Source: a virus
Lineage: Duplodnaviria; Heunggongvirae; Uroviricota; Caudoviricetes
DNA: 11,620 nt
Direction: 5' to 3' (one strand)
IMG/VR virus record: IMGVR_UViG_2531839468_000021
The notes under the pieces were generated by a model that made no database searches, was not told the origin of the DNA, and was given only the letters and a program-made list of their open reading frames with translations. The stretch's first letter is position 1, and each line of letters starts with the position of its first letter. Below, piece by piece: positions 1 through 7,868 of this stretch. The position numbers and the translations under genes are program-made.

Positions 1-456
1 TTGTCGCTGACGGGGCATTATGCCGGAGTCACTGCCGGGCAGCTGTGGACGCTCAGTCGTGCTATTTCCGGGAATGGTATTACGCAACATGCTGCAGCCG
101 GTGCGCTGGCTCAGGTGGTGGGGAGTGGTGCATTTCGTGGAAACGATATCGGTATGGTGGCGAGAGCTGCCGCACAGATGGAGCGATCGGTTGGCCAGTC
201 GGTCAGCGATACCATAAATCAGTTTAAGCGGCTGAAGGATGATCCTGTAAATGCCGCGAAGGCTCTGGACAATGAGCTGCATTTTCTTACTGCCACTCAG
301 CTTGAGCAGATACGCGTCCTTGGGGAACAGGGGCGGTCCAGTGATGCGGCTCGGATAGCCATGTCTGCACTGGCAGAGGAAACCGGTCGACGTACTGCGG
401 ATATTGATAATAACCTCAATGCGCTGGGCAGTACGCTGAAGTACCTGTCTGACTGA
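1..456 (+). CDS. H: Tail tape measure protein (lambda gpH-like), internal fragment; 5' end lies upstream of the window; ends at an in-frame TGA at 454-456 that looks like a frame break rather than a true gene end
   Basis: ORF runs from the window edge in frame 1. The translation (…GTAEQ-type Ala/Gly-rich segment then …NNLNALGSTLKYLSD) aligns by recollection with the central part of lambda gpH just upstream of its …SMWDAVLDIGRPD motif. Position immediately upstream of M is as in lambda. Confidence 0.85.
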   Translation: MSLTGHYAGVTAGQLWTLSRAISGNGITQHAAAGALAQVVGSGAFRGNDIGMVARAAAQMERSVGQSVSDTINQFKRLKDDPVNAAKALDNELHFLTATQLEQIRVLGEQGRSSDAARIAMSALAEETGRRTADIDNNLNALGSTLKYLSD

Positions 457-2102
457 TGGAGCAGTTCTGGGATGCGGCCATGAATATTGGTCGTGAAGAC
501 TCGCTGGATGAACAGATTACCACTTTACAGGAGAAAGTGTCGCGGGCGAAAAGACTCCCCTGGACGGCATCATCTTCTCAGGTTGAATACGATCAGCAGC
601 GTCTTAACGATCTTCAGGAGAAAAAACGCCAGAAGGATCTGCAGGATGCAAAAGAGCAGGCAGAGCGGAATTATCAGGAGCAACAGAAACGACGTAATGC
701 TGAAAATGCTGCACTGAACCGGATGAATGAAACGGAAGCAGCACGACATCAGCGTGAAATTGCGCGTATTAATGCCATGCAGTACGCCGATCAGGCTGTC
801 AGGGATGCGGCGATACAACGTGAAAATGAACGTTACGAGAAAGCCCTGGCATCCGGTAAGAAAAAAACACGCGAAACCCGTAATGATGAGGCCACCCGGT
901 TATTGCTGCAGTACAGTCAGCAACAGGCACAGGTGGAAGGACAGATTGCTGCTGCCAGACAGTCAGCAGGCATTGCCACGGAAAGGATGACAGAAGCGCA
1001 TAAACAGCTTCTGGCTCTGCAGCAGCGCATCAGCGACCTGGACGGGAAAAAACTGACGGCAGATGAAAAGAGTGTACTGGCCCGTAAAGATGAACTGATT
1101 CAGGCACTGACGCTGCTGGATGTAAAACAGCAGGAGCTTCAGAAACAGACGGCACTCAACGAGCTGAAGAAAAAAACAATTCAGCTGACCAGTCAACTGG
1201 CTGAAGAAGAGCGCGCTCAGCGTCAGCAACATGACCTGGATATCGCCACGGTGGGTATGGGTGATCAGCAGCGGCAGCGACATCAGGTACAACTGAGTCT
1301 TCGCCAGAAATACCAGCAACAGCTGGAGCAGTTGAGGCGGGATAGTGAGCAGAAAGGGACATATAACACGGATGACTACAGAAAGGCCGAGCAGGCGCTG
1401 ACGGAGAGCCTGAACCGACAACTGAATGAGAATCGCCGTTACTGGCAACAGCTTGAAGTTGTGCAGGGTAACTGGAAAAACGGAGTCCTGCGTGCATTTC
1501 AGGATTTTACCGTGGATGCAGATAATACGGCAGGAACAGCAGAACAGGTGTTCTCGTCAGCCTTCAGCAACATGGGAAATGGCCTGGCAACTTTTGTCAC
1601 TACCGGCAAACTCAATTTCAAATCCTTCACCTCTTCTGTGCTGTCAGATATGGCGAAAATCCTGGCGCAGGCAACCATGATGAAATCGATAAAAGGGATT
1701 GGCAGTGTACTGGGATTTGATCTCAGCAGCCTTTCCCTGAATGCCAATGGGGGGATTTATCAGTCTGCTGATTTGAGTCGTTACAGTGGCACGGTGGTTA
1801 ACCGTCCGACGTTTTTTGCTTTTGCAAAAGGTGCAGGTGTGATGAGGGAAGCTGGGCCTGAAGCCATTCTGCCACTGCGTCGTGGTGCTGACGGTAAGCT
1901 GGGGGTTGTGGCGGATATTGGTGGTTCAGGTATGGCGATGTTTGCCCCGCAGTACAACATTGAGATCAATAACGATGGCACGAACGGGCAGATAGGTCCG
2001 GCTGCCCTGAAGGTGGTTTATGACCTCGGGAAAAAAGCAGCAGCGGACTTTATGCAACAGCAGTCCCGTGATGGTGGTCTGTTCTCTGGAGGTGGACGAT
2101 GA
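456..2102 (+). CDS. H: Tail tape measure protein (lambda gpH-like), C-terminal portion (548 aa), in frame 3 relative to the upstream fragment
   Basis: Begins MEQFWDAAMNIGRED (cf. lambda gpH …SMWDAVLDIGRPD). Long Q/E/K/R-rich coiled-coil region. C-terminus …NNDGTNGQIGPAALKVVYD…DGGLFSGGGR is the conserved gpH C-terminal signature. Stop TGA at 2100-2102 overlaps the M start (ATGA). Confidence 0.9.
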   Translation: MEQFWDAAMNIGREDSLDEQITTLQEKVSRAKRLPWTASSSQVEYDQQRLNDLQEKKRQKDLQDAKEQAERNYQEQQKRRNAENAALNRMNETEAARHQREIARINAMQYADQAVRDAAIQRENERYEKALASGKKKTRETRNDEATRLLLQYSQQQAQVEGQIAAARQSAGIATERMTEAHKQLLALQQRISDLDGKKLTADEKSVLARKDELIQALTLLDVKQQELQKQTALNELKKKTIQLTSQLAEEERAQRQQHDLDIATVGMGDQQRQRHQVQLSLRQKYQQQLEQLRRDSEQKGTYNTDDYRKAEQALTESLNRQLNENRRYWQQLEVVQGNWKNGVLRAFQDFTVDADNTAGTAEQVFSSAFSNMGNGLATFVTTGKLNFKSFTSSVLSDMAKILAQATMMKSIKGIGSVLGFDLSSLSLNANGGIYQSADLSRYSGTVVNRPTFFAFAKGAGVMREAGPEAILPLRRGADGKLGVVADIGGSGMAMFAPQYNIEINNDGTNGQIGPAALKVVYDLGKKAAADFMQQQSRDGGLFSGGGR

Positions 2103-2428
2103 AAACCTTCCGCTGGAAAGTGAAACCCGGTATGGATGTGGCTTCGGCCCCTTCCGTAAGAAAGGTGCGCTTTGGTGATGGCTATTCTCAGCGTGCGCCT
2201 GCCGGGCTGAACGCTGACCTGAAAACGTACAGCGTGACGCTTTCTGTTCCCCGCGAGGAGGCCACGGCACTGGAATCGTTTCTGGCTGAGCACGGGGGCT
2301 GGAAGGCCTTTCTGTGGACGCCGCCTTATGGCTATCGGCAGATAAAGGTGACCTGCGCAAAATGGTCGTCGCGGGTCAGTATGTTGCGTGTTGAGTTTAG
2401 CGCAGAGTTTGAACAGGTGGTGAACTGA
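2099..2428 (+). CDS. M: Minor tail protein M (109 aa)
   Basis: MKTFRWKVKPGMDVAS…RVEFSAEFEQVVN is essentially the lambda gpM sequence as I recall it, with the same length. GGAGG at 2088-2092 six nt upstream of ATG 2099. ATGA overlap with the H stop and TGATG overlap with the L start indicate translational coupling. Confidence 0.95.
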   Translation: MKTFRWKVKPGMDVASAPSVRKVRFGDGYSQRAPAGLNADLKTYSVTLSVPREEATALESFLAEHGGWKAFLWTPPYGYRQIKVTCAKWSSRVSMLRVEFSAEFEQVVN

Positions 2429-3125
2429 TGCAGGATATCCGACAGGACACACTGAATGAATGCACCCGTGCGGATCAGTCGGCCAGCGTGGTGCTCTGGG
2501 AAATCGATCTGACAGAGATCGGTGGAGAACGTTATTTTTTCTGTAATGAGCAGAACGAAAAAGGTGAGCCGGTCACCTGGCAGGGGAGACAATATCAGGC
2601 GTATCCCATTCAGGGGAGTGGTTTTGAACTGAATGGCAAAGGCACCAGTACGCGCCCCACGCTGGCAGTCTCTAACCTGTATGGCATGGTCACCGGGATG
2701 ACGGAAGATCTGCAGAGTCTGGTCGGCGGAACGGTGGTCAGGCGTAAGGTTTACGCCCGTTTTCTGGATGCGGTGAACTTCGTCAACGGAAACAGCGACG
2801 CCGATCCGGAGCAGGAGGTGATCAGTCGCTGGCGCATCGAGCAGTGCAGCGAACTGAGCGCGGTGAGTGCCTCTTTGTACTGTCCACGCCGACGGAAACG
2901 GACGGCGCTGTTTTTCCGGGACGTATCATGCTGGCCAACACCTGCACCTGGACCTATCGCGGCGATGAGTGCGGTTATCACGGTCCGGCTGTCGCGGATG
3001 AATATGACCAGCCAACGTCCGATATCACGAAGGATAAATGCAGCAAATGCCTGAGCGGTTGTAAGTTCCGCAATAACGTCGGCAACTTTGGCGGCTTCCT
3101 TTCCATTAACAAACTTTCGCAGTAA
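2428..3125 (+). pseudogene. L: Tail tip protein L (lambda gpL-like), interrupted by an apparent 1-nt deletion in a T run at about 2874-2877; frame-1 ORF 2428..3054 carries the N-terminal 149 aa, then frame-3 ORF 2844..3125 carries the authentic Cys-rich C-terminus
   Basis: N-terminus MQDIRQDTLNECTRADQSASVVLWEIDL… matches lambda gpL. After …SELSAVSAS the frame-1 translation becomes Arg-rich nonsense (LYCPRRRKRTALFF…), while frame 3 continues FVLSTPTETDGAVFPGRIMLANTCTWTYRGDECGY…CSKCLSGCKFRNNVGNFGGFLSINKLSQ, the conserved gpL C-terminal Cys cluster. Adding one T to the TTT at 2874-2876 restores a continuous 232-codon ORF, the lambda gpL length. Confidence 0.85.
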
Positions 3126-3130
3126 ATCCC

Positions 3131-3874
3131 ATGACACAGACAGAATCAGCGATTCTGGCGCACGCCCGGCGATGTGCGCCAGCGGAGTCGTGCGGCTTCG
3201 TGGTGAGAACGCCGGAGGAGGAAAGATATTTTCCCTGCGTGAATATCTCCGGTGAGCCGGAGGCGTATTTCCGTATGTCGCCGGAAGACTGGCTGCAGGC
3301 AGAAATGCAGGGTGAGATTGTGGCGCTGGTCCACAGCCACCCCGGTGGTCTGCCCTGGCTGAGTGAGGCCGACCGGCGGCTGCAGGTGCAGAGTGATTTG
3401 CCGTGGTGGCTGGTCTGCCGGGGGACGATTCATAAGTTCCGCTGTGTGCCGCATCTCACCGGGCGGCGTTTTGAGCACGGGGTGACAGACTGTTATACGC
3501 TGTTCCGCGATGCCTATCATCTTGCAGGTATCGATTTGCCGGATTTTTACCGACATGATGACTGGTGGAAATCAGGTCAGAATCTCTATCTGGATAATCT
3601 GGAGGCCACAGGGCTGTATCAGGTGCCGTTGTCATCAGCACAACCGGGCGATGTGCTGCTGTGCTGCTTTGGTTCATCGGTGCCGAATCATGCCGCCATT
3701 TACTGTGGTGACGGCGAGCTGCTGCACCATATTCCTGAACAACTGAGCAAACGAGAGAGGTATACCGACAAATGGCAGCGACGCACACACTCCCTCTGGC
3801 GTCACCAGGCATGGCACGCATCTGCCTTTACGGGGATTTACAACGATTTGGCCGCCGCATCGATCTGCGTGTGA
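3131..3874 (+). CDS. K: Tail tip assembly protein K (MPN/JAMM-like plus NlpC/P60-like domains), 247 aa from the first ATG; an internal Met at 3275 would give the 199-aa form
   Basis: Contains the HSHP…S…D JAMM-type motif (…VALVHSHPGGLPWLSEADRR…) and a downstream Cys/His-containing segment (…DCYTLFRDAYHLAG…NHAAIYCG…). Its 3' end overlaps the I start by 103 nt in another frame, the same overlap I recall for lambda K/I. Confidence 0.88.
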   Translation: MTQTESAILAHARRCAPAESCGFVVRTPEEERYFPCVNISGEPEAYFRMSPEDWLQAEMQGEIVALVHSHPGGLPWLSEADRRLQVQSDLPWWLVCRGTIHKFRCVPHLTGRRFEHGVTDCYTLFRDAYHLAGIDLPDFYRHDDWWKSGQNLYLDNLEATGLYQVPLSSAQPGDVLLCCFGSSVPNHAAIYCGDGELLHHIPEQLSKRERYTDKWQRRTHSLWRHQAWHASAFTGIYNDLAAASICV

Positions 3875-4473: not shown

Positions 4474-6441
4474 ATGGGTAAAGGCAGCAGTAAGGGGCAT
4501 ACCCCGCGCGAAGCGAAGGACAACCTGAAGTCCACGCAGTTGCTGAGTGTGATCGATGCCATCAGCGAAGGGCCGGTTGAAGGTCCGGTGGAGGGATTAA
4601 AAAGCGTGCTGCTGAACAGTACGCCGGTGCTGGACAGTGAGGGGAATACCAATATCTCCGGTGTCACGGTGGTTTTCCGGGCAGGTGAGCAGGAGCAGAC
4701 ACCGCCGGAGGGATTTGAATCCTCCGGCTCCGAGACGGTGCTGGGTACGGAAGTGAAGTACGACACGCCGATTACCCGGACCATCACGTCTGCAAACATC
4801 GACCGTCTGCGCTTTACCTTCGGTGTACAGGCACTGGTGGAAACCACCTCAAAGGGTGACCGGAATCCGTCGGAAGTCCGCCTGCTGGTTCAGATACAAC
4901 GTAACGGTGGCTGGGTGACGGAAAAAGACATCACCATTAAGGGCAAAACCACCTCGCAGTATCTGGCCTCGGTGGTGGTGGATAACCTGCCGCCGCGCCC
5001 GTTCAACATCCGGATGCGCAGGATGACGCCGGACAGCACCACAGACCAGCTGCAGAACAAAACGCTCTGGTCGTCATACACTGAAATCATCGATGTGAAA
5101 CAGTGCTACCCGAACACGGCACTGGTCGGCGTGCAGGTGGACTCGGAGCAGTTCGGCAGCCAGCAGGTGAGCCGTAATTATCATCTGCGCGGGCGTATTC
5201 TGCAGGTGCCGTCGAATTATAACCCGCAGACGCGGCAATACAGCGGTATCTGGGACGGAACGTTTAAGCCGGCATACAGCAACAACCCGGCCTGGTGTCT
5301 GTGGGATATGCTGACCCACCCGCGCTACGGCATGGGGAAACGTCTTGGTGCGGCGGATGTGGATAAATGGGCGCTGTATGTCATCGGCCAGTACTGCGAC
5401 CAGTCAGTGCCGGACGGCTTTGGTGGCACGGAGCCGCGCATCACCTGTAATGCGTACCTGACCACACAGCGCAAGGCGTGGGATGTGCTCAGTGATTTCT
5501 GCTCGGCGATGCGCTGTATGCCGGTATGGAACGGGCAGACGCTGACGTTCGTGCAGGACCGACCATCAGATAAGGTATGGACCTATAACCGCAGTAATGT
5601 GGTGATGCCGGATGATGGCGCGCCGTTCCGCTACAGATTCAGCGCCCTGAAGGACCGCCATAATGCCGTTGAGGTGAACTGGATTGACCCGAACAACGGC
5701 TGGGAGACGGCGACAGAGCTTGTTGAAGATACGCGGGCCCTTGCCCGTTACGGTCGTAATGTCACGAAGATGGATGCCTTTGGCTGTACCAGCCGGGGGC
5801 AGGCACACCGCGCCGGGCTGTGGCTGATTAAAACAGAACTGCTGGAAACGCAGACCGTGGACTTCAGCGTGGGGGCCGAAGGGCTTCGCCATGTGCCGGG
5901 CGATGTCATTGAAATCTGCGATGATGACTATGCCGGTATCCGCACCGGCGGGCGCGTGCTGGCGGTAAACAGCCAGACCCGGACGCTGACGCTCGACCGT
6001 GAAATCACGCTGCCATCTTCCGGCACCACGCTGATAAGCCTGGTTGACGGGCAGGGGAGTCCGGTCAGCGTGGAGGTTCAGTCCGTCACCGACGGCGTGA
6101 AGGTGAAAGTGAGCCTGGTTCCTGACGGTGTTGCTGAATACAGCGTGTGGGGGCTGAAGCTGCCGACGCTGCGCCAGCGACTGTTCCGCTGCGTGAGTAT
6201 CCGTGAGAACGACGACGGCACGTATGCCATCACCGCCGTGCAGCATGTGCCGGAAAAAGAGGCCATCGTGGATAACGGGGCGCACTTTGACGGCGACCAG
6301 AGCGGCACGGTGAATGGTGTCACGCCGCCAGCGGTGCAGCACCTGACTGCCGAAGTCACCGCAGACAGCGGGGAGTATCAGGTACTGGCCCGCTGGGACA
6401 CGCCGAAGGTGGTGAAGGGCGTGAGTTTATGCTTCGCCTGA
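4474..6441 (+). CDS. J: Host specificity / central tail fibre protein J, N-terminal 655 aa; ends at a frame break
   Basis: [34 protein letters not shown]… and the following ~650 residues are near-identical to lambda gpJ by recollection. GGAG at 4462-4465 upstream of ATG 4474. The ORF terminates as …[11 protein letters not shown], where lambda gpJ continues. Confidence 0.9.
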
Positions 6442-7868
6442 CCGTGGCAGCGGATGACGGCAGTGAGCGGCTGGTCAGCACGGCCCGGACGACGGAAACC
6501 ACGTACCGCTTCACGCAACTGGCGCTGGGGCGGTACACGCTGACAGTCCGGGCGGTAAATGCGTGGGGACAGCAGGGCGATCCGGCGTCGGTATCGTTCC
6601 GGATTGCCGCACCGGCAGCACCGTCGAGGATTGAGCTGACGCCGGGCTATTTTCAGATAACCGCCACGCCGCATCTTGCCGTTTATGACCCGACGGTACA
6701 GTTTGAGTTCTGGTTCTCGGAAACGCGGATTACCGATATCAGGCAGGTTGAAACCACAGCCCGCTACCTTGGTACGGGACTGTACTGGATAGCCGCCAGT
6801 ATCAATATCAAACCGGGCCATGATTATTACTTTTATATCCGCAGTGTGAACACCGTTGGCAAATCGGCATTCGTGGAGGCCGTCGGTCGGGCGAGCGATG
6901 ATGCGGAAGGTTACCTGGATTTTTTCAAAGGCAAGATAACCGAATCCCATCTCGGTAAAGAGCTGCTGGAAAAAGTCGAGCTGACGGAGGATAACGCCAG
7001 CAAACTGGAGGAGTTTTCGAAAGAGTGGAAAGACGCCAGTGATAAATGGAATGCCATGTGGGGCGTCAAAATTGAGCAGACCAAAGACGGCAAACATTAT
7101 GTCGCGGGTATTGGCCTCAGCATGGAGGACACGGAGGAAGGCAAGCTGAGCCAGTTTCTGGTTGCCGCTAACCGTATCGCGTTTATTGACCCGGCAAACG
7201 GGAATGAAACGCCGATGTTTGTGGCGCAGGGCAACCAGATATTCATGAACGACGTGTTCCTGAAACGCCTGACGGCCCCCACCATTACCAGTGGTGGAAA
7301 TACACCGGTATTTTCCCTGACACCGGACGGGCGGCTGACGGCGAAAAATGCCGATATCAGCGGTAACGTGAATGCGAACTCCGGGACGCTCAACAACGTC
7401 ACGATTAACGAGAACTGTCGGGTTCTGGGAAAATTGTCCGCCAACCAGATTGAAGGCGATCTCGTTAAAACAGTGGGCAAAGCTTTCCCCCGGGACTCCC
7501 GTGCACCGGAGCGGTGGCCATCAGGAACCATTACCGTCAGGGTTTATGACGATCAGCCGTTTGACCGGCAGATTGTTATTCCGGCGGTGGCATTCAGCGG
7601 CGCTAAACATGAGAAAGAGCATACTGATATTTACTCCTCATGCCGTCTGATAGTACGGAAAAACGGTGCTGAAATTTATAACCGTACCGCGCTGGATAAT
7701 ACGCTGATTTACAGTGGTGTTATTGATATGCCTGCCGGTCACGGTCACATGACACTGGAGTTTTCGGTGTCAGCATGGCTGGTAAATAACTGGTATCCCA
7801 CAGCAAGTATCAGCGATTTGCTGGTTGTGGTGATGAAGAAAGCCACCGCAGGCATCAGTATCAGCTGA
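6429..7868 (+). CDS. J: Host specificity protein J, C-terminal 479 aa in frame 3, including a divergent C-terminal receptor-binding region
   Basis: [34 protein letters not shown]… continues the gpJ sequence directly after the break. The combined length (about 1131 codons) matches lambda gpJ. The last ~150 residues (…[24 protein letters not shown]…[10 protein letters not shown]) keep the gpJ C-terminal architecture but differ substantially from the lambda LamB-binding domain. Confidence 0.9.

Follow-up and report, generated by a model that had tools for sequence, protein, structure and literature searches.

Does the broken reading frame of gene L in this lambdoid prophage belong to the DNA of its bacterial host, or only to the draft assembly in which it was deposited? 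The window analysed here, a stretch of 11,620 nucleotides from IMG/VR record IMGVR_UViG_2531839468_000021, corresponds to positions 56–11675 of contig AFDT01000021.1 (NCBI GCA_000225085.2), which begins inside gene H. It holds a lambda-type tail module on the plus strand, consisting of H (partial), M, L, K, I, J, lom and a short collagen-like tail-fibre gene. Gene L sits between M and K, and the order H-M-L-K-I-J is that of lambda. Both neighbours of L are intact and on the plus strand, M lying upstream (2099–2428, PF05939) and K downstream (3131–3874, with JAB and NlpC/P60 domains).

The deposited gene L is one base short

The frame break lies at a run of three T bases (2874–2876, plus strand), within the sequence CCTCTTTGTA at positions 2870–2879. 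Translation in frame 1 from the ATG at 2428 gives the N-terminal part of the protein, residues 1–149, which ends in SAVSAS (2428–2873, plus strand) and is 100% identical to the L protein of two relatives, L005 and L003. The same frame then runs on into an out-of-frame tail (LYCPRRRKRTALFF...NANA, 2875–3054, plus strand, stop codon at 3052–3054), giving a predicted product of 208 aa. Residues 150–232, the C-terminal iron-sulfur domain, are instead encoded in frame 3 (2874–3125, plus strand, stop codon at 3123–3125), where translation from 2874 gives FVLSTPTETDGAVFPGRIMLANTCTWTYRGDECGYHGPAV...CSKCLSGCKF...SQ before the stop, a reading that can also be followed as FVLSTPTETDG...CTWTYRGDEC...CSKCLSGC...SQ. 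A single uninterrupted L reading frame of ~232 codons is not present in the deposited sequence, which has to be read across from frame 1 into frame 3 at 2874, whereas L in the relatives is one ORF. The profile PF05100 (Phage_tail_L) was matched on both sides of the break, with profile positions 1–120 in the frame-1 part (E = 1e-57) and positions 122–206 in the frame-3 part (E = 7e-36).

Alignments against phage 434, PhiR63_2 and E. coli 210221272 showed that gene L is exactly one base short at the T run; the relatives have TCT TTT or TCC TTT at this site, i.e. one base more. The shortfall is therefore confirmed as a real observation in the deposited sequence. The initial annotation had claimed that a 1-nt shortfall in the T run parts the N-terminal part of gpL from its C-terminal domain, had named alignment with lambda gene L DNA as a check, and had proposed that restoring TTTT at 2874–2876 would give a lambda-like protein; the alignments with lambda-like L DNA bear out the first claim and the restored translation the last. 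Adding one T yields the full 232-aa protein, identical to the L protein of both relatives (L005 and L003) and matching lambda gpL (PDB 8iyk_L) end to end over residues 1–232 (E = 8e-155). At the nucleotide level the restored gene shows no differences from L of L005 across 699 nt, the missing T being the sole difference between the two.

The restored gpL has cysteines at residues 173, 182, 205, 208 and 212, all of them in the frame-3 segment. Cys173, Cys182, Cys205 and Cys212 are the ligands of the [4Fe-4S] cluster in gpL (PMC10721106), and all four are encoded downstream of the frame break, in agreement with the earlier assignment of the C-terminal iron-sulfur domain to frame 3. The cysteine pattern that had been read from the sequence stands in part: C-x2-C-x3-C is present (residues 205, 208 and 212), but the spacing given as C-x9-C is in fact C-x8-C (Cys173...Cys182).

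The deletion allele is private to one contig

Intact L alleles were recovered from at least 120 IMG/VR loci, and across these loci the base missing from the window was always there, as C in 63 matches and as T in 59. Of 4343 E. coli records with a match, the best 30 listed likewise all have the extra base. The deletion allele itself (GAGTGCCTCTTTGTACTGTCC) had no exact match in IMG/VR, JGI metagenomes or GTDB representative genomes, and the 208-aa frameshift product was found in one contig only, AFDT01000021.1, in an index of 153 billion genes. A second assembly of strain 3030-2, the source of this contig, was not found; the sister-lineage assemblies have an intact gene L.

Sister assemblies carry the same prophage without indels

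Five sister assemblies (L005 and L007–L010) were found via the 402-aa protein encoded near the end of the window, and in each of them the same prophage meets ybhB, bioABFCD and uvrB at the same junction. These genes, which lie outside the window (positions 1–7700 of L005 and L006), mark the classical lambda attachment region. One of the five, L005, spans the whole region, and its H (1021 aa), L (232 aa) and J (1131 aa) are all intact. Compared with L005 the source contig is 99.85% identical over 21.2 kb, with 26 substitutions, six 1-nt deletions and no insertions. In all six cases the base is missing from the source contig, and all six fall in the prophage part of ~12 kb. The chromosomal flank of ~7.7 kb shows no differences between the source contig and L005 and is identical in all six assemblies compared, and a single substitution falls in the 9.3 kb that precede the first indel.

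Five of the six deletions shorten a base run (A6 to A5, G3 to G2, C4 to C3, T4 to T3 and T3 to T2). Three are in the window, in H near 464, in L at 2874 and in J after 6425. The other three private 1-nt deletions of the source contig (L006 9369, 9642 and 9672; A6 to A5, G3 to G2 and C4 to C3) lie 150–460 nt to the right of the window, in the interval that separates the 402-aa gene from a tail-fibre-assembly remnant, and the longer A6, G3 and C4 runs are kept in the five other assemblies. At every deletion site that they cover, the four further assemblies have the same sequence as L005. As a control, the five other assemblies were compared with one another, and all ten pairwise comparisons gave no indels and 0–8 substitutions in the prophage part.

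The source contig also carries five private substitutions (at window positions 639, 1281, 1845, 5637 and 8338), four of which are nonsynonymous and all of which are missing from all other sampled alleles. Changes of this kind are not what 454 errors typically look like, and neutral drift in a prophage that is already dead would fit them as well. The substitution at 8338 changes Thr to Ala in lom (7936–8535), a state missing from 38 other sampled alleles, and in the gene index the Lom variant with this change occurs in the source assembly only. Look-ups of the Lom and tail-fibre products of the window found no sister assembly with the same private substitutions.

Differing gene calls outside the window had suggested frameshifts throughout the assembly, and these were rejected after alignment. 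The bioD (212 versus 225 aa) and bioA (410 versus 429 aa) genes show no DNA difference and differ only in the choice of start codon. A candidate nonsense mutation in the NleD-like M91 peptidase gene, which is uncalled in the source contig, was similarly dismissed, the gene being intact with one P3S change.

The short tail-fibre gene (8600–9913, 437 aa) combines a prophage tail-fibre N-terminal domain with collagen-like repeats and a Phage_fiber_C end, and is followed by a second Phage_fiber_C ORF at 9936–10184. Its 437-aa product is on record nowhere else, and the gene is uncalled in the source assembly though its ORF is open. The start of the gene (8596–8691) contains 12 substitutions in ~100 nt, which distinguish the source assembly from the sister assemblies, and in the closest complete genome the place of the short tail-fibre gene is taken by stfR, of 3.4 kb. 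Beyond these genes, the 402-aa ORF on the minus strand (10415–11620) was matched only by PHROG 26984, a family of unknown function, with no sequence match in Pfam, NCBIfam or PDB. Identical copies of its protein occur in 19 contigs, and its position, with the tail-fibre genes on one side and the gene for the NleD-like M91 peptidase on the other, is like that of a prophage cargo gene.

Further lesions in genes H and J

Gene H, which encodes the tape measure protein, contains five substitutions, including TTA to TGA at 454–456, plus a 1-nt deletion (444–464, plus strand). The lesion splits H into ORFs at 1–456 and 456–2102. For this stretch, each of the best 12 matches listed among more than 1800 matching E. 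coli genomes is one base longer. IMG/VR proviruses hold two families of H alleles, near-identical upstream of ~436 and divergent after it, and the lesion lies ~500 nt into the source contig, at the onset of the divergence between these alleles A and B. Allele A reads GAT TTA TGG AGT CGT TTC and allele B reads GAC TGG TGG AAG CAG TTC, while the window reads GAC TGA TGG A-G CAG TTC, a column-wise mix of the two that creates a TGA stop and a frameshift found in neither allele. Position 522 is another allele-B state amid allele-A sequence. Reads of a paralogous prophage copy that contaminate the consensus at a repeat boundary would give such a pattern, which would be hard to produce by mutation.

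In gene J the wobble C of a Ser codon (AGC) that precedes TTT is missing after 6425, leaving GGGCGTGAG-TTT (6420–6428, plus strand) and splitting J into ORFs at 4474–6441 (655 aa) and 6429–7868 (479 aa). The best matches listed among E. coli complete genomes are all one base longer than the window here. Alleles with AGC TTT and with AGT TTC both exist, and the window has neither C; the C at 6420 is the state of the second J allele, which is also found in the porcine strain UMNF18. A pattern common to the three deletions in the window, the loss of a Ser wobble base ahead of a Phe codon, was considered; L and J fit it, but the base missing from H is an A of AAG, as alignment to allele B shows.

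Origin of the missing base

AFDT01 is the assembly of the porcine enterotoxigenic E. coli (ETEC) strain 3030-2 (PMC4358887), and is a draft of 2011, now at version.2. Assemblies AFDQ, AFDR and AFDU–AFEA, from the same centre and project, were built with Celera 6.0 from 454 Titanium 3-kb paired-end libraries (PMC3491183), and AFDT, to judge by these neighbouring WGS prefixes, was probably also produced with 454 Titanium and Celera; the papers found for the accession name the strain but no platform for AFDT01.

We consider it likely that the T missing from L is a sequencing or assembly artefact of AFDT01000021.1 and that the deletion does not occur in the bacterial DNA. This explanation is better supported because the allele is private to one draft, because there are six private 1-nt deletions confined to the prophage, and because H carries the signature of allele mixing. 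It would also account for the occurrence of deletions only, for their confinement to a repeat-prone prophage and for sister assemblies that are free of indels. The error would have arisen in the consensus across a lambdoid-prophage tail region, a repeated stretch of the genome, probably from 454 Titanium reads assembled with Celera. A homopolymer under-call, with TTTT read as TTT, would be enough alone for L. In addition or instead, reads may have piled up from a pair of paralogous prophage copies, one with TCC and the other with TCT as the Ser codon before TTT, in which case a gapped or flow-space alignment would turn a wobble difference beside a T run into two half-filled columns, both of which could be called as gaps; the two processes can act together. 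The deletions in L and J both lie at C/T wobble polymorphisms beside a T run, and in the window both of the alternative bases are absent. For the pile-up we infer a second prophage copy in strain 3030-2. The real gene would then be an intact lambda-type L of 232 codons, encoding a tail-tip protein with a [4Fe-4S] domain. Counting against an artefact, L itself has no other sign of mixing across its 699 nt. Moreover, 454 sequencing at normal coverage does not usually give a consensus error at a run of only four bases, and the artefact therefore presupposes either low coverage or the mixing of paralogs.

Alternatively, strain 3030-2 may have undergone a real, private and recent slipped-strand loss of one T from the T4 run of L, which we regard as possible but unlikely. 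The T is, after all, missing from the deposited sequence. The distribution of the differences can also be read in this way: the chromosomal flank, which is under selection, has no deletion, all six falling in the prophage, on which selective constraint would be relaxed, and the private substitutions are mostly nonsynonymous (four of five) and outside the known alleles, as neutral decay predicts. Homopolymer runs are natural indel hot spots, and defective E. coli lambdoid prophages with frameshifted tail genes are common. Set against this is the balance of the changes, since six indels against ~8–10 scattered substitutions is far over the usual ratio of ~1:10, and this excess would have had to arise in a lineage whose flank is identical to that of five sister assemblies, themselves indel-free. 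The interleaved mix of two alleles in H is hard to get by mutation, the tail module has no other marks of decay (IS elements and large deletions are not present), and the lesion occurs in no independent assembly. The initial annotation had implied a genuine lesion in gpL, which is doubtful on this evidence; the assembly error that it had set against its own reading appears better supported.

Two further explanations, in which the break would have a function, seem very improbable. One is that L is a working two-frame gene, with full-length gpL controlled by a programmed −1 ribosomal frameshift or by slippage or a phase-variable switch at the T run. Getting from frame 1 into frame 3 does require a −1 shift and its site adjoins a stretch of U, and elsewhere in lambda-type tail operons, at G-T, a −1 shift is programmed, as annotated in phage 434. 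However, C UCU UUG at the site does not have the X XXY YYZ form of a slippery heptamer, and the 83 nt downstream (2878–2960) have a folding energy of −22.8 kcal/mol, shuffled sequences averaging −22.0 (z = −0.29). Three Ts are too short a run for transcriptional slippage or phase variation. Moreover, L is a single ORF in the 120 IMG/VR loci, in the best E. coli genome matches listed and in the sister assemblies, and the two-frame allele has no exact match in IMG/VR, JGI metagenomes or GTDB representatives. A programmed frameshift is rejected since there is no slippery heptamer, no downstream structure beyond that of shuffled sequence and, among the relatives examined, none with two frames. The other explanation, to which we give equally little credence, takes the H, L and J frameshifts as real and linked, either as selected or targeted silencing of the tail module in a domesticated prophage, in which lom, the tail-fibre gene and the cargo genes may have been kept, or as unconventional −1 recoding at the junctions of Ser wobble and Phe TTT in L and J.

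Implications and comparison with known systems

The frame break in L is thus most probably not a biological feature, as far as can be judged from comparisons of deposited sequences. If the deletion were real, gpL would be truncated to 149 native and 59 nonsense residues and would lose its entire iron-sulfur domain, and with H and J broken as well the prophage could not build tails. It would then be a defective prophage without tails, though still with lom, the tail-fibre gene and its cargo genes, and of an ordinary kind that is common and already well known. Either way, the locus says nothing new about gpL or its iron-sulfur domain. Its use is as a caution, in that frameshifts in prophage tail genes from 454-era drafts need read support before they are called pseudogenes, domain splits or recoding sites.

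The restored protein closely resembles lambda gpL (PF05100; chain L of PDB 8iyk, 8iyl and 8k35), having the same length of 232 aa with 9 differences, the cluster ligands at cysteines 173, 182, 205 and 212, and a place in the same H-M-L-K-I-J order of genes; unlike lambda gpL, the deposited ORF is broken after codon 149 by the 1-nt shortfall. As a set, the lesions resemble homopolymer and collapsed-repeat errors of 454 drafts, in that they are 1-nt deletions only, five of six in runs and private to one assembly, with a neighbouring batch made by 454 and Celera, a repeat-prone prophage segment starting from a contig end and one column-wise mix of alleles. They differ from typical 454 errors in that the runs are short (2–6 bases) and the J deletion is a single C, and 454 is only the probable platform of AFDT. 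With its frameshifts in H, L and J and its open cargo genes, the prophage is also like defective E. coli lambdoid prophages such as the prophage pool of O157 Sakai. Unlike the pseudogenes of such defective prophages, however, its lesions are not shared with sister assemblies and stand in otherwise identical sequence, with a signature of allele mixing.
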